A stretch of DNA of 64,000 nt. It comes from a virus. Lineage: Duplodnaviria > Heunggongvirae > Uroviricota > Caudoviricetes. Shown piece by piece: positions 16,731 through 35,059 of the stretch. A program made the translations under genes and the position numbers. Positions within the stretch are counted from its first letter, which is position 1, and each line of letters begins with the position of its first letter. The notes under the pieces are model-generated. The model did not search any database, was not told the DNA's origin, and saw only the letters and a program-made list of their open reading frames with translations. Where the stretch lies: IMG/VR virus record IMGVR_UViG_3300037424_001372, positions 140,837-204,836 of that record. One strand, given 5' to 3'.

Positions 16731-17126
16731 ATGAATGAAATACTTAAAGTAATATTTGGTGATTATACATTCATCGAATTATTTGGTTTTATTTGGTTTT
16801 TATTTATTGGTTATGCAATATACGGTTTAAATGAAACTAGTTTACGCGATAAGGATGGTAAAGCGACTCCCGAAAAATGGAGTTGGAAATTTTGGTATCA
16901 CGATAATTGGAAAAGATATTTAGCAACAATATTATCGACATATGTGTTATTTATTTTCTATAGTCAATTTGTTGGAAATCCTTTAACTAATTTTGAAGCA
17001 TTGATGATTGGTTTAATTGGTGATGGATTAGGTGCAACAGCTAAGAAAAGAATTGATATGACAAAAGCAAATCGAGAAAAATTGATGACAGACATTAATG
17101 AAAACAATAAAGAAAATATTGGATAA
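16731..17126 (+). CDS. Small membrane protein (possible holin-like)
   Basis: Three hydrophobic segments and a charged C-terminus; function inferred only. Confidence 0.4.
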   Translation: MNEILKVIFGDYTFIELFGFIWFLFIGYAIYGLNETSLRDKDGKATPEKWSWKFWYHDNWKRYLATILSTYVLFIFYSQFVGNPLTNFEALMIGLIGDGLGATAKKRIDMTKANREKLMTDINENNKENIG

Positions 17127-27471: not shown

Positions 27472-28185
27472 ATGACAAATAAATTCGATTTTAATAAGAT
27501 AAAAAATGAGATTGATAGAGAAAAGCATAATCGTATCTCAACACCATCGCAATTTGGTGAAAGTGTCGGTAGTGGACAATCACCTCGCGATGCTTTTTTA
27601 AATGGATTGTTAACTGCTAGACATAGTGGTGTTGAAACATCTTCAACTCAATTAATTAAAGTTGTTGAAAATAAGGTGGCCAATAAAAAGGGTGGAGCTA
27701 GTGTTCATAATATTAATGAAACCGTTCCTCAACATAATCAACGTCCAACACAAAGACCTAATCGTCCCACACCTATTGATATGAGTGAAGATAGGGAGGA
27801 AATGATGTATCAACAATTTAATGGAAAGAAAAGTAATCAAACTCTTGCAGAGAGTATTGAAACATTTAATGGTGGCAGTCGTAATCCTAATAGTAATATT
27901 AATCATAATAATCAACAATATTTAACATCATTACCTAATAATGTGCAACAATACCCAACACAGATTAATGAAAGTGTTTTAAATGAAAGTGTGAGAAATA
28001 TGGTTAATGGATATTTAACAGAAAATTTGGGTAGTGTTTTTGAAGAAGCTATTAAAAACACTATTATTGAAATGTATGCAGTCGAACGAATAAATGAGGT
28101 TTTACGCGAAAATAAAGATTTGATCAAATCAGTGGTCGTTGAAACTATACGAGAAATACAAGCAAGAAAATCTAAAGCACAATAA
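27472..28185 (+). CDS. Hypothetical (putative prohead/internal) protein
   Basis: Low-complexity N/Q middle; several INE/LNE/LTE motifs; helical C-terminus. Confidence 0.6.
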   Translation: MTNKFDFNKIKNEIDREKHNRISTPSQFGESVGSGQSPRDAFLNGLLTARHSGVETSSTQLIKVVENKVANKKGGASVHNINETVPQHNQRPTQRPNRPTPIDMSEDREEMMYQQFNGKKSNQTLAESIETFNGGSRNPNSNINHNNQQYLTSLPNNVQQYPTQINESVLNESVRNMVNGYLTENLGSVFEEAIKNTIIEMYAVERINEVLRENKDLIKSVVVETIREIQARKSKAQ

Positions 28186-28203
28186 TAATTGTGCTTTTTT
28201 TTC
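28174..28203 (+). terminator. Intrinsic terminator
   Basis: AAAGCACAAT-AATA-ATTGTGCTTT plus T-run. Confidence 0.65.
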
Positions 28204-28240: not shown

Positions 28241-31200
28241 ATGACATATAATGAATTTAAGCAAAATTATTTACCCGAATTAATTAAAATAAACTCATTT
28301 GCCGGTAAGAAAAAATATATTGATAATTATCTTCAAAGCGTTGGTAGTGGTACAGGTCGAGCAGTTTATGATATTGATGGTAATTATGTTTTAAAATTAG
28401 CAAAAAATCCAAAAGGTATTGCACAAAATGAAGCAGAAGCAGGTGCTGGTTCATATAATGATACAGAACATATTGTTGCTAAAGTAATCGATGAAGCAGA
28501 TGACTATAGTTGGTTGATTTCTGAAAAAGGTAAAAAGGTTACTGAAAATCGTATTAAACAAATTACCGGAATTCCAAGTTTATTAAAATTATATCATTTT
28601 TTAAGAAATTATGAATTAATTGTTAAGGGAAAGAAAGAATTCTCTCAATTAACTAAAGAAGAAAACGATTTTTTTTGGGAGAATGAATTTTCATCAAATT
28701 TAGCAGATTTTGTGGTAAACTATAACCAATCATCAGGCGATATGGGTCGCCCTAGTACATATGGTGAAGTATTGCGTAATGGTCAACCTTCGATTGTATT
28801 AACCGATTATGGTTTAAATGATGAAGTTTATGATACTCATTATAACCCACAAACAAAAAATAAATATAGAATGTATGAATTATATAATCATGGTGAAGGT
28901 AACGATGATGTTTTAAATGATATTGATGGTGATAATGATATTAGAAAAAGTAATTGGGCATTAATACCTTATGGTGTGGACGATGGCGATAATGTCGTGA
29001 ATGAAGAATTTATTAACTTTGTTTCAAATAGAAATAAATACCCAAATACTAACATTAATAATTTACCTACATTGGCAGATAATTTCCATGAATGTGTTAA
29101 TAATATTAGAGAAACTCTTAATAAAGTCGATAATAAAAAACAATTTTATTCTAACCTATTAGAACTTCAGAATTATTTAATTAGTAGAGATTTTTATCAC
29201 AATGAACCACTTTTAATTAAAGAAGATTATCCTAAAGAACAAGCTGATGCAATTGCTGTTGAAATAGGTGATAAATTAGGCGTAAATCCTAAACCAATTG
29301 GTGGTGGTAAATTTGGAGTTGCTTATGATATTGGTAATGATAAAATATTGAAAATTACTAAAGATAATAGTGAAGCATATGAAAATATTAAACTTATTGG
29401 TAAACCATTAAAATATATTGCATTACCATATAAGGTTTTTGAAATTAGCACTAAATCGAATTCAATTAAAACATATGGAATCATATTAGAAAAATTGAAA
29501 ACTAATCCAGAGTATTTTAAAAGAATGTATGATAGATTGGATTATGTTTGTAAAAATATTTTTAATACTGATTATCATACTCTCATTGATGCATATGTTT
29601 ATAATGATTTTGATTATATTGATGTTGATAAAAATCAAATAGAATCATATTTATCGAAAAATCCTGAAGATTTTAAATTTTTTAACGGTATTTTAAATAT
29701 TATTGATGAGCTAAAACAATATGATATTGATAGTGTTGAATTTTATAATGTGAAAAATTTAGGATATAAGAAAAGTGGTGATTTAGGTATGTTCGATGTT
29801 GGCTTTGCAGACACTTCGTCATACCCTCAAGGAATTGAAAAATATGATATTAATATTTCTGAAGATGGTAGTGCTAAATTTAGTACCAATAATTCTGTTG
29901 GACAAGATAATTTTCCACCATATAATATTAACGATACATCACCAAGCATTAATAATAGTTTAGATGCCAATATCTCAATGTATGAGGAAAGAAATAAATC
30001 ATTTGGTTCAGGTTCTAAATCAGTCGAAATAAAAAAAAAGTGTAAATTAGGTGGTATTGGTAATACTAGTGTTGCTTGCAATCAAGGCGATATTAATAAT
30101 TTAGAGTTTAAATCTATAAATGAAGTTATTGATGCCAAACAAGCATATCGTGATAGTGATGCAATACAGGCAATGATTAATGGTAATAAAGATGTTGCAC
30201 TCATTTCATTTAAAAGAAATCCAGATATTGAAAATATTTTAAATAAAAATGGATGGGGAAAAACTAAGATAGTTCAAAATCATGATAATATTGACATGCA
30301 TTTAATATATCGTAAATCTCAAGAAGGTTTAAAAAAAGCAATGCAATTATATCGAATATTAGAAAAAAAAGGTGGATATTTGAAGGATGAAACACCTGAA
30401 GAAGCTCGTGAAATTGGAAGACTTTTAGATTATACAGACGAATCAATAGACCAATATGTTGATAGTAAATATAATGGTCATATAAATGAAAATTCATTTG
30501 AAAATACTAAGGTAGTTGATAATCAAGGTAAATCATTTCCAGAACTAGATGTAACAAAATCTAATAAGTTGCGTAATAATATCATGAATGAAGTAAATAT
30601 GATATCGTTACAAGAATTACCATTTAAACAAGAAGTTGAACAACTTGGTGGTAATATATATTCAGTTGGTGGTGCAGTCCGTGATGAATTCTTGGGTAAT
30701 GAATCGAAAGATTTGGACATTCTCATCACAGGTATACCTATGGATAAACTTGAAGAAATTTTATCAAAATATGGTAGAGTAGATGCTGTTGGAAAGTCTT
30801 TTGGTATTTTAAAATTCAAACCTAAAGGTTCTGAAGAAGATATTGATGTAGCAATACCTCGTACCGAAAAACCAACTGGTGAAGGGGGTCATAAAGGATT
30901 TGAGGTTTCTTCAGACCATGCTTTACCGATTGAAAAAGATTTGAAACGTAGAGATTTTACTATCAATGCTATTGCAAAAGACATAAATGGTAATTTAATT
31001 GACCCATTTCATGGTCAAGAAGATTTAAAAAATAAAATTATTAGAGTTGTTAATCCTGAAGCATTTAGTGATGACCCATTGAGAATGTTAAGGGCCATAC
31101 AATTTTCTAGTCGTTTTGGATTTACTATTGAACCCAAAACGATGGAAATGATTAAAAATAATGTATCTAAAATTAATGAAATTGCTGCCGAAAGAATTTT

Positions 31201-32641
31201 AACTGAATTAGATAAGATAATTAGAAAAGGAAATTCATTAATTGGTGTACAATTATTATCATCAACTGGATTATTTAAACAAATTTTTGGTAATGAAATA
31301 AAACCATCACAAATTGGTCGTAGAGATTTTAGTCAAGTTAAAACTATGGCAGAATTTTTATTTCTAATGATGAATGGTGTTGTTCAAAATCCATCAGAAT
31401 TTTATTTAAAAAGGTTTAGTACCGAGGATTCTAAAAGAGATAAAACTTATAAAGAACTAAAAGCATTGGAAACGGCATTTAATTCTGATTTAGTTAATCA
31501 ACAAATGTCACCAGCTATTGCAAGGTCAATTGGACACAACATGTATTCAATTGCACCACAATCATTGCAAAGTCAGATATTACCGGAACAAATATCAAAA
31601 GCTGCTCAAGAACTATTACATGGTCAATATCCTAAAAATACCATAGAGTTAGCTTTAAACGGTAACGATTTAATGCAAAAAGGTTTGCAAGGTCAACAAA
31701 TAGGACAAGCGTTGAAAAGTCTTTTAATTAAAGTATATGCTGATGAGGTTCATAATACTAAAGATGAATTGTTTGCAGCTTTAAATAGTATCGGTAAAAA
31801 AACGTTAAACGAATCAAAAGAAAATCAAATCGAATATGGTGCATTAATGTTATTTATTGATACGAATAATTGGAATAAATATACTAGTCTAATTAATAAA
31901 AACGATTTATATGAAAAAAATAATGAATTTGGTGTTGAAGATGAACCACATGTAACATTGTTATATGGATTTAAAGATAATGTTACCAATAAACAAGTAT
32001 TTGATTTATATAAAGAAAAATTTCAACTAAAACCAATTGAAATTGAATTTAACGAGATTTCGATATTTGAAAACGATGATTTTGATGTGGTTAAATTTGA
32101 TATAAAAAATGATGAATTATCTAAAATCAATAAAGAACTTAGAAAATTACCAAATAAATTAACATACCCAACATATCATCCACATATGACAATTGCATAC
32201 GTAAAAAAAGGTCTGGGTGAAAAATATGTGAAAAAACTAAATACTAATTTAAAAATGATTGGTAATAAGTTAGTGTTTTCAACAAAAAAAGAGAAGAAAT
32301 CTATTTTAAATTTAAATAATAATGAAAATTTAAATGAAGGTAAATCATCTTATAATGAAGTTAAAGATTCTTTATTAAAATCTAAATCAATTCCTAAAGA
32401 AATGAAGGAAGAGATTTTAAAGTATTTAACAAGTGGTTCTAATTATCATGAAGGTGGTAGAGTAATAGGGTTAATAAAACCTAAAGAATTGACTGAAAAA
32501 TCGTCAAAAACTAAAGGAGTTAGTATGGGAGCAGATAAGAATGGATTTTATGTTTATACACATAGAGCACGTTCTAAGTCACATCTTACACCAGATAAAA
32601 TAACTGTTAAAGAAATTGATTTTATTGAATCAACTGGTTAA
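28241..32641 (+). CDS. 1466-aa multidomain protein: two protein-kinase-like domains, unknown domain, CCA-adding/poly(A)-polymerase-type nucleotidyltransferase, 2H phosphoesterase, conserved C-terminal domain
   Basis: Kinase 1: GSGTGR..Y, VLKLAK, GD, TDYG. Kinase 2: GGGKFG.AY, ILKIT, KNLG, FDVG. CCA: VGGAVRD, DLD, DL.RRDFTINA, DDPLRMLRA. 2H: PHVTL and PHMTIAY. Confidence 0.85.
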   Translation: MTYNEFKQNYLPELIKINSFAGKKKYIDNYLQSVGSGTGRAVYDIDGNYVLKLAKNPKGIAQNEAEAGAGSYNDTEHIVAKVIDEADDYSWLISEKGKKVTENRIKQITGIPSLLKLYHFLRNYELIVKGKKEFSQLTKEENDFFWENEFSSNLADFVVNYNQSSGDMGRPSTYGEVLRNGQPSIVLTDYGLNDEVYDTHYNPQTKNKYRMYELYNHGEGNDDVLNDIDGDNDIRKSNWALIPYGVDDGDNVVNEEFINFVSNRNKYPNTNINNLPTLADNFHECVNNIRETLNKVDNKKQFYSNLLELQNYLISRDFYHNEPLLIKEDYPKEQADAIAVEIGDKLGVNPKPIGGGKFGVAYDIGNDKILKITKDNSEAYENIKLIGKPLKYIALPYKVFEISTKSNSIKTYGIILEKLKTNPEYFKRMYDRLDYVCKNIFNTDYHTLIDAYVYNDFDYIDVDKNQIESYLSKNPEDFKFFNGILNIIDELKQYDIDSVEFYNVKNLGYKKSGDLGMFDVGFADTSSYPQGIEKYDINISEDGSAKFSTNNSVGQDNFPPYNINDTSPSINNSLDANISMYEERNKSFGSGSKSVEIKKKCKLGGIGNTSVACNQGDINNLEFKSINEVIDAKQAYRDSDAIQAMINGNKDVALISFKRNPDIENILNKNGWGKTKIVQNHDNIDMHLIYRKSQEGLKKAMQLYRILEKKGGYLKDETPEEAREIGRLLDYTDESIDQYVDSKYNGHINENSFENTKVVDNQGKSFPELDVTKSNKLRNNIMNEVNMISLQELPFKQEVEQLGGNIYSVGGAVRDEFLGNESKDLDILITGIPMDKLEEILSKYGRVDAVGKSFGILKFKPKGSEEDIDVAIPRTEKPTGEGGHKGFEVSSDHALPIEKDLKRRDFTINAIAKDINGNLIDPFHGQEDLKNKIIRVVNPEAFSDDPLRMLRAIQFSSRFGFTIEPKTMEMIKNNVSKINEIAAERILTELDKIIRKGNSLIGVQLLSSTGLFKQIFGNEIKPSQIGRRDFSQVKTMAEFLFLMMNGVVQNPSEFYLKRFSTEDSKRDKTYKELKALETAFNSDLVNQQMSPAIARSIGHNMYSIAPQSLQSQILPEQISKAAQELLHGQYPKNTIELALNGNDLMQKGLQGQQIGQALKSLLIKVYADEVHNTKDELFAALNSIGKKTLNESKENQIEYGALMLFIDTNNWNKYTSLINKNDLYEKNNEFGVEDEPHVTLLYGFKDNVTNKQVFDLYKEKFQLKPIEIEFNEISIFENDDFDVVKFDIKNDELSKINKELRKLPNKLTYPTYHPHMTIAYVKKGLGEKYVKKLNTNLKMIGNKLVFSTKKEKKSILNLNNNENLNEGKSSYNEVKDSLLKSKSIPKEMKEEILKYLTSGSNYHEGGRVIGLIKPKELTEKSSKTKGVSMGADKNGFYVYTHRARSKSHLTPDKITVKEIDFIESTG

Positions 32642-33079: not shown

Positions 33080-33646
33080 ATGATTACGAAAAATAATAAA
33101 AAAGTTATTAAACGACTGTGTACCTACGACTTTGATATGACATTGATTAACACATATTCTCCAGAAATTGGTAAACCTATGTGGGAAAAATATTATGATG
33201 AAAAATTTAAATATTCTGGTTGGTGGGGTAGACCAGAAAGTCTCGATACAAATGTTTTTGATATAAAACCATATCCAGAAATTTTAGAGAAATTAATTTC
33301 AGATAATAATGCTAAAGATACTCATGTTATTATATTAACATCGAGACAGGAAAAACTACGTTCACAACTTGAAAATGTTCTAAAATTGAACAATATTCAT
33401 GTTGATGAAATTGTTATGAAAAAAGGTAATGCTGATAAAGGTGATATTATCATGAAATATGTTAATAATAATCCTGATTTGGAATATATTATTTCATATG
33501 ATGATTTTGCTGGTGGATTGCAAGATAAAATTGATGAATATACTAAAATTAAACCTGAGTTGGATAATAGAGGTATTCAATTTAACATCGTTACTGTGGT
33601 CAATGGTCAAATTAGTAAATTGGCCGAATCAACATGTTATTCATGA
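33080..33646 (+). CDS. HAD phosphatase, Swiss-army-knife RNA-repair-like
   Basis: DFDMTL motif I, WW..PESL, ILTSR motif II, K, and YDD motif IV. Confidence 0.75.
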   Translation: MITKNNKKVIKRLCTYDFDMTLINTYSPEIGKPMWEKYYDEKFKYSGWWGRPESLDTNVFDIKPYPEILEKLISDNNAKDTHVIILTSRQEKLRSQLENVLKLNNIHVDEIVMKKGNADKGDIIMKYVNNNPDLEYIISYDDFAGGLQDKIDEYTKIKPELDNRGIQFNIVTVVNGQISKLAESTCYS

Positions 33647-34525: not shown

Positions 34526-35059
34526 ATGAAAAAAAATGTTATACTTGCTTTTATAATGTTAGTTGGATTTTTTTGTGAAATGTCATCTCAAAATTTTTCC
34601 GAATTAGATTATAAAGCAGCTTTTACGACATCAATTGTTAGATATTTTGGTTGGGATAAATCTGTTATTCAATCAGATACTGATTTTGTAATCGGTATTG
34701 TGAAAAATCGTGCCTTATTTAATAAAGTTTATCAAAGTGCTAATAATAAACAATATGGATATCAAAAAATTGTTGTTAAGGAGTTTAATAATGTAAATAA
34801 TATTACAGATTGTCATGTATTATTTATTTCTTCATTAGTTAATTTTTCAAAATATCATAATATCATTCATAATATTATTGGTAAAAATACGTTAATAATT
34901 ACTGAAGCAGATGGTATGATTAAATATGGTTCTTCGATTAATTTCATTATTATAGATAATATACTTAAATTTGAAATCAATAAGAAAAACATTATTAATA
35001 GTAATATTCAATTAAATGGTAAATTAGAAAGATTGACCAATTCAATAATCGTAAATTAA
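34526..35059 (+). CDS. YfiR/HmsC (DUF4154)-like exported protein
   Basis: Signal peptide; KAAF...I.RY..W, F.IGIV, CHVLFIS, L.ITE..G......INF......L.FEIN......I.L...L..L. Confidence 0.75.
   Translation: MKKNVILAFIMLVGFFCEMSSQNFSELDYKAAFTTSIVRYFGWDKSVIQSDTDFVIGIVKNRALFNKVYQSANNKQYGYQKIVVKEFNNVNNITDCHVLFISSLVNFSKYHNIIHNIIGKNTLIITEADGMIKYGSSINFIIIDNILKFEINKKNIINSNIQLNGKLERLTNSIIVN

Follow-up and report, generated by a model that had tools for sequence, protein, structure and literature searches.

Conserved junction motifs in a modular polyvalent protein encoded by a metagenomic jumbo phage

Introduction

Polyvalent proteins are polypeptides of phages or conjugative elements in which 2–15 unrelated, mostly catalytic domains are combined (PMC5512222). 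Their repertoire includes kinases without a C-lobe as well as 2H, GNAT, ART, ParB-type and Pol-beta nucleotidyltransferase domains, and both packaging in the virion and delivery together with the DNA have been predicted for them; in some cases, self-processing by built-in metallopeptidases has been proposed (PMC5512222). Here we describe a protein of 1466 residues, referred to below as the polyprotein, which is encoded by an open reading frame (ORF) at positions 28241–32641 (+ strand) of the window, that is, the whole stretch of 64,000 nucleotides that was analysed (positions 140,837–204,836 of the IMG/VR virus record IMGVR_UViG_3300037424_001372; Duplodnaviria; Heunggongvirae; Uroviricota; Caudoviricetes). 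The modules of this protein are joined at places where a short motif, composed of a hydrophobic residue, any residue and Glu ([ILMV]-x-E, or h-x-E), recurs, and the placement of the motif at these junctions is beyond chance.

Proteins that travel within phage heads provide the second comparison. The prohead proteases of T4, phiKZ, 201phi2-1 and SPN3US recognise short x-x-E motifs, cleaving behind the Glu, and act on proteins that are packaged and ejected, and the T4 capsid protein gp23 loses a 65-residue propeptide (PMC5694885). The resemblance to the T4 head cargo (IPI–III and Alt) and to the ejection proteins of the giant phages phiKZ, 201phi2-1 and SPN3US, which are processed by gp21-type or gp175-type prohead proteases, lies in the genome that encodes the polyprotein, which also specifies a protease of the gp21 family and a capsid protein of the gp23 family. 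Known cargo mostly loses a single N-terminal propeptide, whereas the polyprotein would be cut at up to nine joints, giving rise to a row of enzymes.

Results and discussion

Overall architecture of the polyprotein

The domain organization was derived from two AlphaFold2 models, which were built from family alignments and cover residues 1–625 (predicted local distance difference test score, pLDDT, 83) and 600–1466 (pLDDT 86). Searches with residues 1–795 against Pfam, PDB sequences and PHROG gave no usable match, so family profiles and structure models were needed for this part of the chain. Structures were superposed with VIA, and an additional wide fold search independent of Foldseek was performed.

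The polyprotein starts with module A (28241–28861, residues 1–207), a minimal kinase-like domain without C-lobe. It is followed by linker 1 (28862–29005, residues 208–255), which is rich in D/N/G, disordered (pLDDT <50 over 208–251) and ends with V-V-N-E (252–255), where a helix begins at residue 255. The small module A2 (29006–29215, residues 256–325) is composed of helices spanning 255–315 with pLDDT ~85, and gives a weak match to the Pfam family HTH_71 (E 4.5e-5, below the cut-off). A hinge motif, I-K-E (29216–29224, residues 326–328), coincides with low pLDDT at 325–327 and with a homology breakpoint at ~325–327, and connects A2 with module B (29225–29863, residues 329–541), the second minimal kinase-like domain. 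The disordered linker 2 (29864–30007, residues 542–589; pLDDT <50), with breakpoints at ~530, 546 and 580, has ISE (539–541) at its start and MYE (580–582) within it, and leads to module L (30008–30115, residues 590–625), a conserved mini-module with the sequence KKKCKLGGIGNTSVACNQGD that harbors the two cysteines C601 and C613.

The second half of the chain begins with the junction motif I-N-E (30116–30124, residues 626–628), which is disordered in the 600–1466 model. Module C (30125–30478, residues 629–746) follows; its fold and family profile are NleE-like, indicating a putative S-adenosylmethionine (SAM)-dependent cysteine methyltransferase. A spacer of 38 disordered residues (30479–30592, residues 747–784; pLDDT <50 at 747–786), extending between I-N-E (748–750) and M-N-E (782–784), separates module C from the CCA module (30593–31795, residues 785–1185), identified from Pfam matches and fold as a complete class II tRNA nucleotidyltransferase. 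Two further linkers, both with pLDDT <50, flank the 2H phosphoesterase (31832–32320, residues 1198–1360), which is assigned by Pfam, fold and motifs: one containing L-N-E at 1189–1191 (31796–31831, residues 1186–1197) and one containing L-N-E at 1364–1366 (32321–32347, residues 1361–1369). The conserved Ct module (32348–32641 including the stop codon, residues 1370–1466) ends with IDFIESTG. All these features are located on the + strand.

Much of this layout had been anticipated by a first-pass annotation, which was made from the DNA letters and their translations, and the parse obtained from models, fold searches and profile searches agrees with it. The ORF that it had read as a single one is indeed uninterrupted by stops; its two kinase-like domains are recovered at residues 27–194 and 335–527, its CxLGG..AC motif corresponds to C601 and C613, and its CCA-type nucleotidyltransferase and 2H phosphoesterase are borne out by Pfam and by fold. 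The YTHRARSKS sequence proposed to mark a C-terminal domain is found within the Ct module. The domain with REIGRLL.Y (residues 723–731), described there as unknown, is present and can now be related to NleE. The architecture, which the first-pass annotation did not recognise from characterised proteins, does belong to a described class, the polyvalent proteins (PMC5512222).

With at least five catalytic-type domains in its 1466-residue ORF, the polyprotein is a polyvalent protein sensu Iyer et al. 2017. It shares with this class the unrelated catalytic domains in one phage chain, the variation from relative to relative and an overlapping repertoire. It differs in carrying a CCA-adding enzyme and an NleE-like module, both absent from the paper describing the class (0 occurrences of each term in PMC5512222), in having kinases that the Kinase-PolyVal Pfam family does not match, though they lack the C-lobe as the paper describes, and in its carrier, a T4-like jumbo myovirus. 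Moreover, in contrast to the processing proposed there, no peptidase domain was detected in the polyprotein, and its joints carry a motif of the prohead-protease type instead. As far as our literature searches reach, three features are new: the embedded CCA-adding enzyme, the NleE-like module and, for a T4-like jumbo phage, joints that share a standardised motif of the protease type.

Position and conservation of the junction motif

The first-pass annotation had noted x-N-E motifs at or near the domain boundaries. The coordinates that it gave for VVNE and for the INE, MNE and LNE motifs listed above are right within one base, and the placement at junctions holds, whereas [ILMV]-x-E, with a preference for N between the two fixed residues, describes the motif itself better than x-N-E. 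The polyprotein contains 17 NE (10.7 expected) and seven [ILMV]NE (2.5 expected). These plain counts were dropped as evidence, because the motif is enriched 1.6-fold throughout the genome.

The position of the motifs is more informative. Linkers were taken from the AlphaFold models as residues 208–251, 325–327, 542–589, ~626–629, 747–786, 1186–1197 and 1361–1369. Five of the seven [ILMV]NE are not buried but located inside these disordered linkers, compared with 0.57 expected from shuffling restricted to the linker residues (five was reached in none of 5000 shuffles), and the linkers contain nine [ILMV]xE compared with 3.1 expected (P ≤0.001). The two remaining [ILMV]NE are VNE (253–255), located at the end of linker 1, and INE (978–980), within a helix of the CCA module. 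Homology breakpoints, defined as the ends of 577 BLAST alignments to relatives, occur at residues ~14, 325, 530, 546, 580, 627, 747, 777, 1182 and 1369, and an [ILMV]xE motif is found within 5–8 residues of 7–8 of these ten points (shuffle p ~0.001). In addition, INE and MNE mark the two ends of the spacer that precedes the CCA module, as would be the case for an excised peptide.

The motif is conserved at the corresponding junctions of relatives. At the projected junctions before A2, C, CCA, 2H and Ct, [ILMV]xE is present in 82–96% of relatives compared with 21% at random positions, and [ILMV]NE is present in 40–77% before these five module types compared with a background of 4%. At the A2 junction the two values are 82% and 77%. 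The start of module C shows [ILVM]-x-E in 96% of 85 junctions, whichever module lies upstream; 94% of relatives have [ILMV]xE ~8 residues before the 'SLQDLPFK' of the CCA module, behind unrelated upstream modules; and the motif is found at 90% of 40 junctions before 2H and at 90% of 21 before Ct, the latter behind three different upstream modules. The motif travels with the downstream module regardless of what precedes it, and in distant relatives it also precedes internal copies of module A. A short linker, LE-[IV]-x-E-YFSSLVP-x-MNE, which contains two [ILMV]xE-type sites 12 residues apart, is recurrent. Within the motif, the hydrophobic residue and Glu are near constant, whereas the middle position is mostly N and can also be K, D, S, T, Q, R, G or H. 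A protease site fits this pattern better than a helix cap, because the middle position tolerates K/R/G/Q/H while the hydrophobic residue and Glu are kept.

Module swapping among relatives

Relatives of the N-terminal 795 residues comprise 174 long proteins in one database and ~2000 cluster representatives in another, and 242 family proteins are covered by our module map. The head end is constant across the family and is composed of A, A2, B in a single or a double copy, and L. The later modules vary, including NleE-like (sometimes two), GNAT, ART-PolyVal, ParB, NlpC/P60 and Trl1-CPD-like modules together with unknown ones, and the Pfam matches among relatives include PF18760, PF13508/PF00583, PF13563, PF02195, PF00877 and PF20798. 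Many family members end with CCA, 2H and Ct in this order. Variable domain content between conserved h-x-E junctions, which the first-pass annotation had proposed to look for in relatives, is thus what the survey revealed.

The first-pass annotation had proposed that the separate effectors couple protein phosphorylation with tRNA 3'-end restoration; among relatives, the modules assort independently. In both of the relatives without a CCA module that were examined (2/2), a separate CCA gene is located immediately downstream of the polyprotein gene (L012:6511–7367 and L015:4345–5294); the products of 529–541 residues are divergent enzymes and not the detached module. Because a CCA gene adjoins the polyprotein gene where the module is missing, a functional link between phosphorylation and tRNA 3'-end repair is nevertheless possible. 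The CCA gene of L015 is preceded by a LAGLIDADG homing-endonuclease gene, a LAGLIDADG gene is also adjacent in the further relative L013, and an IS605 OrfB/TnpB gene is located upstream in L012.

Module A is also found inside other giant proteins and as a free protein of 190–240 residues. The relatives from cultured phages are only free-standing versions of module A, encoded by unannotated ORFs of the Xanthomonas jumbo phages XacN1 and Xoo-sp13; the homologous ORF170 is not mentioned in the XacN1 virion proteomics paper.

The prohead protease and a predicted capsid maturation site

The source record is 324,744 bp long and rated complete by CheckV, with a G+C content of ~27% and almost all genes on the same strand; judged from its genes, the source phage is a T4-like jumbo myovirus. 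Its head module is of the T4 type, with a Peptidase_S77 (gp21-like) ORF, a scaffold-like ORF and a gp23-like major capsid gene located contiguously ~75 kb upstream of the window. The genome thus encodes a gp21-type prohead protease, the enzyme to which the first-pass annotation had referred. The protease ORF (614 residues; genome coordinates G000:C1 63002–64846, outside the window) matches Peptidase_S77 (PF03420) with 29.2 bits (cut-off 27). It is ~3 times as long as T4 gp21, and the protease carries large extra parts, as the matches fall in two separated stretches.

The gp23-like capsid protein contains a single [ILMV]NE, 'MINE|SS', at a place where a cut during maturation would be expected; it is located 14 residues before FPVIRRVF, a stretch whose V77 aligns with residue 98 of T4 gp23. 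A scan of viral contigs provided 55 distinct relatives of the capsid protein, in which the site reads I/L/V-N/K-E and the most variable N-terminal stretch lies directly after it. Moreover, the scaffold-like ORF beside the capsid gene contains five [ILMV]NE compared with 1.25 expected. At the sequence level, the motifs in capsid and scaffold fit, rather than prove, a preference of the protease for h-N-E.

T4 IPII and IPIII begin with MKTYQEFIAE, which the N-terminus of the polyprotein, starting with MTYNEFKQNYLPE and reading MTYNEF...LPE, resembles. A T4-like capsid-targeting leader was set aside as a possible coincidence, as the stretch is unique in the genome and part of a confidently folded helix.

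Two minimal kinase-like modules

In the models, both module A and module B adopt a protein-kinase-like (ePK/APH) fold without the C-terminal subdomain. Module A, modelled with pLDDT >90, possesses the G-loop GSGTGR, K52, E66, D167 and D189-Y-G. Across 101 sequences, G37, R40, K52, E66, D189 and G191 do not vary, and at the position of D167 all but one (100) have Asp. The family profile matches the N-lobe of SteC, an effector kinase of Salmonella (E 9.6e-6), and residues 19–198 of the model superpose on APH(2'')-IVa with Z 8.0 and a root-mean-square deviation (rmsd) of 4.1 Å over 131 residues. A protein Atlas search pointed to a cluster in which 11% of members are annotated as Phage_T7_kinase, and the viral structure library BFVD returned free-standing jumbo-phage proteins of 190–216 residues (RaK2, CBB) together with T7-type 'protein kinases'.

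Module B is characterized by G356, G359, K371, E378, E500, N506 and D519-V-G, of which K371, E378, N506 and D519 are invariant in the 101 family rows. It superposes on PKR, Stk1, CDK2 and many other protein kinases with Z 9–10.6 over ~130–150 residues. These alignments always span the N-lobe to just beyond DFG, showing that the C-terminal subdomain is missing. The unusual Glu at the position of the catalytic-loop Asp, pointed out by the first-pass annotation in SVEFYNVKNLG (residues 498–508), is residue 500, which is Asp in 95 of the 101 sequences and Glu in the six that include the polyprotein; as the acidic group is kept, module B should not be called a dead kinase.

Both modules share with the T7 gp0.7-type phage kinases and SteC the minimal kinase core with G-loop, Lys, Glu and Asp. 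Unlike these proteins, the polyprotein contains two different kinase copies in one chain, each ending just past the DFG equivalent. Unlike typical kinases, module A has Ser at the position of the catalytic-loop Asn, and module B has Glu in place of the catalytic Asp. No Pfam kinase family matches the polyprotein. Direct comparison of A with B yielded only a 26-column match around the G-loop (BLASTP E 0.036; hhalign probability 41%), and a recent duplication is not claimed on this ground. The substrates of the two modules might be RNA rather than protein.

The NleE-like module and the two-Cys module

The NleE cysteine-methyltransferase fold is known from effectors of enteric pathogens. Four observations relate module C to it. 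The family profile matches the sequence of the NleE crystal structure 4r29 with E 0.002, "AREIGxLLxY..SIxxY" being aligned with "AREMGEIFSY..EIDSYMK". The Pfam family NleE (PF20798) is matched by 21 of 79 aligned family members (best E 1.5e-7), one relative exceeding the cut-off (27.3 compared with 27), although module C of the polyprotein itself has no PF20798 match. Superposition of the model on 4r29 gives Z 11.8 and an rmsd of 2.2 Å over 118 residues, covering residues 81–219 of 4r29, and the same structure was recovered with Z 11.6 in the Foldseek-independent wide search. On the basis of these models, profiles and matches, module C is considered NleE-like and a putative SAM-dependent cysteine methyltransferase. 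It also resembles the small Porphyromonas protein 2guk (Z 10.2), and the protein Atlas search with module C gave no usable match.

The residues that matter for SAM binding by NleE are Arg107, Glu191 and Tyr212 (PMC4239114), whose positions are occupied by K650, E721 and Y739 in module C. The likeness to the type III effectors NleE/OspZ thus comprises the fold and the equivalents of the SAM-binding Glu and Tyr. The column of Arg107 contains Arg in 48 and Lys in 31 of the 79 family members. Unlike NleE, module C has no counterpart of the first ~80 residues, and because the phage infects a bacterium, its setting differs from that of NleE and a different target is required.

Module L is conserved in 201 of 242 family proteins and was modelled with pLDDT ~80. 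The entire polyprotein contains four cysteines, two of which are located in this module. Among relatives, the KKKCxLGGxGNTSxACNQGD mini-module is often found directly before an NleE-like cysteine-methyltransferase module. This arrangement raises the idea that module L might imitate a substrate, serve as a pro-segment or be methylated by the protein itself.

The CCA, 2H and C-terminal modules

The CCA module matches PolyA_pol (PF01743, 84 bits), PolyA_pol_RNAbd (PF12627, 57 bits) and tRNA_NucTran2_2 (PF13735, 29 bits), all over the cut-offs, and its model superposes on the Bacillus CCA enzyme 1miv with Z 30.0, 375 of 395 residues being aligned at 28% identity. The catalytic motifs GGAVRD...DLD and RRD are present, at residues 810–826. 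By sequence and model, this module is a class II CCA-adding tRNA nucleotidyltransferase with the full head-neck-body-tail fold; its predicted activity is the addition of CCA, CC or A, or poly(A) polymerization. CCA enzymes are common in jumbo phages, where they have been interpreted as serving the repair of tRNA 3' ends (PMC7824862). Unlike the free-standing enzymes of the phage or Bacillus type, the CCA enzyme described here is embedded in a chain of 1466 residues, between the NleE-like and the 2H domains. A match was obtained for 514 phage records, and no record in the collection of cultured phages covers more than 28% of the polyprotein.

The 2H module possesses both HxT motifs, H1237-V-T and H1315-M-T, and matches 2_5_RNA_ligase2 (PF13563) with 38.7 bits, above the cut-off of 27, so that sequence and model identify it as a member of the 2H phosphoesterase superfamily. 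The match to the Acb1 family (PF23474) reaches 24.6 bits, below the cut-off of 27. Superposition on Usb1, plant CPDase, LigT and phage Acb1 gives about equal values (Z 12–13), Acb1 (7t26, Z 12.5) being no better than the other 2H enzymes.

The Ct module, which matches PHROG 3666, is the best-conserved part of the protein, with a mean column identity of 74%, well above any catalytic module, and it is always located at the extreme C-terminus. Neither a sequence relative in the PDB nor a paralogue elsewhere in the genome was found for it, and no chain reached Z ~5 or more in the wide fold search, in which it was searched within the larger model, so that a new fold is not claimed. Its conservation and terminal position would suit a part docking onto some conserved structure of the phage.

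Proposed packaging and processing of the polyprotein

The reading that we consider most likely from sequence comparisons and models is that the polyprotein is a packaged polyvalent effector polyprotein which would be cut by the prohead protease into separate enzymes delivered with the DNA; credence and doubt weigh about equally in this proposal. Nearly all linkers contain [I/L/M/V]-x-E, usually with N in the middle. The whole chain would be taken up into the prohead, where the phage's own gp21-type (Peptidase S77) protease would cut after the Glu of [I/L/M/V]-x-E at the joints and release the separate enzymes. The pieces would enter the host alongside the DNA and act ahead of phage gene expression. 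Host proteins would then be modified by both minimal kinases, which are T7 gp0.7/SteC-like, as well as by the methyltransferase of the NleE type, the CCA-adding enzyme would rebuild damaged tRNA 3' ends, and the 2H phosphoesterase would open 2',3'-cyclic phosphate ends, or destroy cyclic-nucleotide alarm signals as Acb1 does. Our analysis shows what the domains are at the level of their folds, how modules are exchanged among relatives, where the motifs lie and how well they are conserved, and that the genome encodes the protease; from this we infer packaging, cleavage and injection of the polyprotein, as well as its catalytic activities and substrates. A wider version, which we put forward only tentatively, doubting it more than we trust it, is that the T4-like jumbo phages of this clade load a train of enzymes on one ticket, with the prohead protease cutting at the h-N-E couplings. 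The injected first-strike kit would then include a tRNA CCA-adding enzyme mending tRNA 3' ends before phage expression and an NleE-type cysteine methyltransferase directed against a bacterial zinc-binding protein, neither of which has been described for any phage virion. If this is true, the standardised couplings would explain the free swapping of modules among relatives.

Several observations weigh against the reading as a packaged polyprotein. On the baseline of the genome, where [ILMV]NE is found 1.6-fold over expectation, the plain count in the polyprotein is not significant. The junction sequences are homologous among relatives, so that they represent ~5–7 independent junction types, not hundreds, and the motif adjoins the conserved module start and could be a part of the fold. 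In addition, the polyprotein gene sits between replication and baseplate genes, outside the head module. The N-terminal leader does not recur in any other ORF of the genome, the model shows it as a well-packed helix that belongs to the folded kinase, and no targeting signal was identified in it. With respect to the individual modules, Arg107, the most critical SAM-binding residue of NleE, corresponds to Lys (K650) in the polyprotein, and the Pfam family Kinase-PolyVal (PF18762) has no match at E ≤1 anywhere in the genome. Moreover, the polyprotein is known from genome sequence alone and the phage from a metagenome only.

The main rival is an uncut cytoplasmic fusion that is made during infection and never packaged, an explanation which we regard as unlikely and nevertheless take seriously. 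The protein would then be a hub of tRNA/RNA repair, in which the kinases either have RNA as their substrate, like the archaeal tRNA 2'-kinase ArkI, or regulate repair, and h-x-E would represent ordinary features of linkers or first helices (a hydrophobic staple plus N-cap) or leftovers of shuffling. The CCA and 2H modules are RNA-end enzymes, module B also aligns to TkArkI (Z 7.8), a weak HAD_SAK_1 match below the cut-off is located just downstream (33080–33646), and the separate, divergent CCA gene adjoins the polyprotein gene where the CCA module is missing. The enrichment of [ILMV]NE across the genome is in line with this explanation, as is the position of each junction motif beside the conserved start of the next module, the motif before A2 abutting the first helix of that module. 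However, relatives carry ART-PolyVal, GNAT, ParB, NlpC/P60 and NleE-like modules, which are typical host-modifying weapons rather than parts for RNA repair, and protein kinases together with phage kinases of the T7 type rank highest among the kinase matches. An RNA ligase was not seen among the neighbouring genes examined, and the frequent occurrence of residues that do not cap helices (K, R, G, Q, H) in the middle of the motif, next to a near-invariant Glu, speaks against a capping role.

Cleavage at the joints by another agent, either a host protease that acts once the protein has been expressed or delivered, or a self-cleaving activity that has escaped recognition, appears improbable. The linkers are long and disordered, hence accessible, an NlpC/P60 domain exists in one relative, and self-processing by a built-in metallopeptidase has been proposed for other polyvalent proteins (PMC5512222). 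Nevertheless, no peptidase domain was detected in the polyprotein, whereas the motif matches the after-Glu specificity of the S77/S80 prohead proteases and recurs in the phage's capsid protein, at the site where maturation is predicted. We attach very little weight, marginally less again, to the notion that the motifs are fossil or working start sites, stemming from modules that were once separate M-N-E genes whose Met drifted to I/L/V, or serving internal initiation. The CCA junction most often reads M-N-E, codons for I, L and V are each reachable from ATG by a single base change, and fused and unfused CCA arrangements both exist. Yet the junction codons are ATA, ATT, TTA and GTG, among which ATA and TTA are non-initiating and TTA is two changes away from ATG; the module C junction shows I/L/V and never M in the rows displayed; and the separate CCA genes of relatives encode divergent enzymes instead of the detached module. 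Internal translation starts were rejected, as no Shine-Dalgarno-like sequence is present ahead of any joint of the polyprotein gene.

If the joints are prohead-protease sites, they would provide large phages with a general, modular route by which many enzymes for host takeover and counter-defence are delivered just as the DNA enters, and the standard cut-site would serve as a connector through which new modules are plugged in during evolution. The repair of tRNA 3' ends would join the pre-made, injected countermeasures, and the NleE cysteine-methyltransferase fold would extend into conflicts between phages and bacteria.

Genome neighbourhood

The polyprotein gene is flanked by a replication block (SNF2-type helicase, family B DNA polymerase and NUDIX) on one side and by gp25- and gp6-like baseplate genes on the other. 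The order of replication block, polyprotein and baseplate genes is also found in a relative of 322 kb, and the site upstream of the baseplate block is conserved, which we count in favour of the packaged polyprotein. A terminator-like hairpin (28176–28203), AAGCACAA...TTGTGCTT followed by a T run, is located between the upstream ORF and the start of the polyprotein, which therefore probably begins its own transcription unit. The T4 late-promoter motif TATAAATA occurs 34 times in the window compared with 30.5 expected, which is chance frequency, and is thus uninformative on the timing of polyprotein expression.

The ORF directly upstream of the polyprotein (27472–28185, 237 residues) contains four [ILMV]NE compared with 0.59 expected (p 0.003), and an ORF of 220–228 residues is located at the matching upstream position in three relatives. 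Except for a weak match to DUF445, no family match was found for the 237-residue protein, which may be a partner or an additional cargo protein. Two genes downstream of the polyprotein, an ORF of 188 residues (33080–33646) weakly matches HAD_SAK_1 (E 2e-4, below the Pfam cut-off), a family of HAD domains from the RNA-repair proteins called 'Swiss Army Knife', and also weakly matches a polynucleotide-kinase PHROG. From these sequence matches, it may be an RNA 3'-phosphatase acting alongside the CCA and 2H modules.

Two other ORFs of the window deserve mention. An ORF of 131 residues (16731–17126) contains three [ILMV]NE compared with 0.15 expected, the top enrichment in the genome. The ORF at 34526–35059 (177 residues) encodes a clear YfiR/HmsC-like protein (DUF4154, E 6.7e-25), a member of a family of periplasmic regulators of cyclic-di-GMP signalling that is unusual in a phage.

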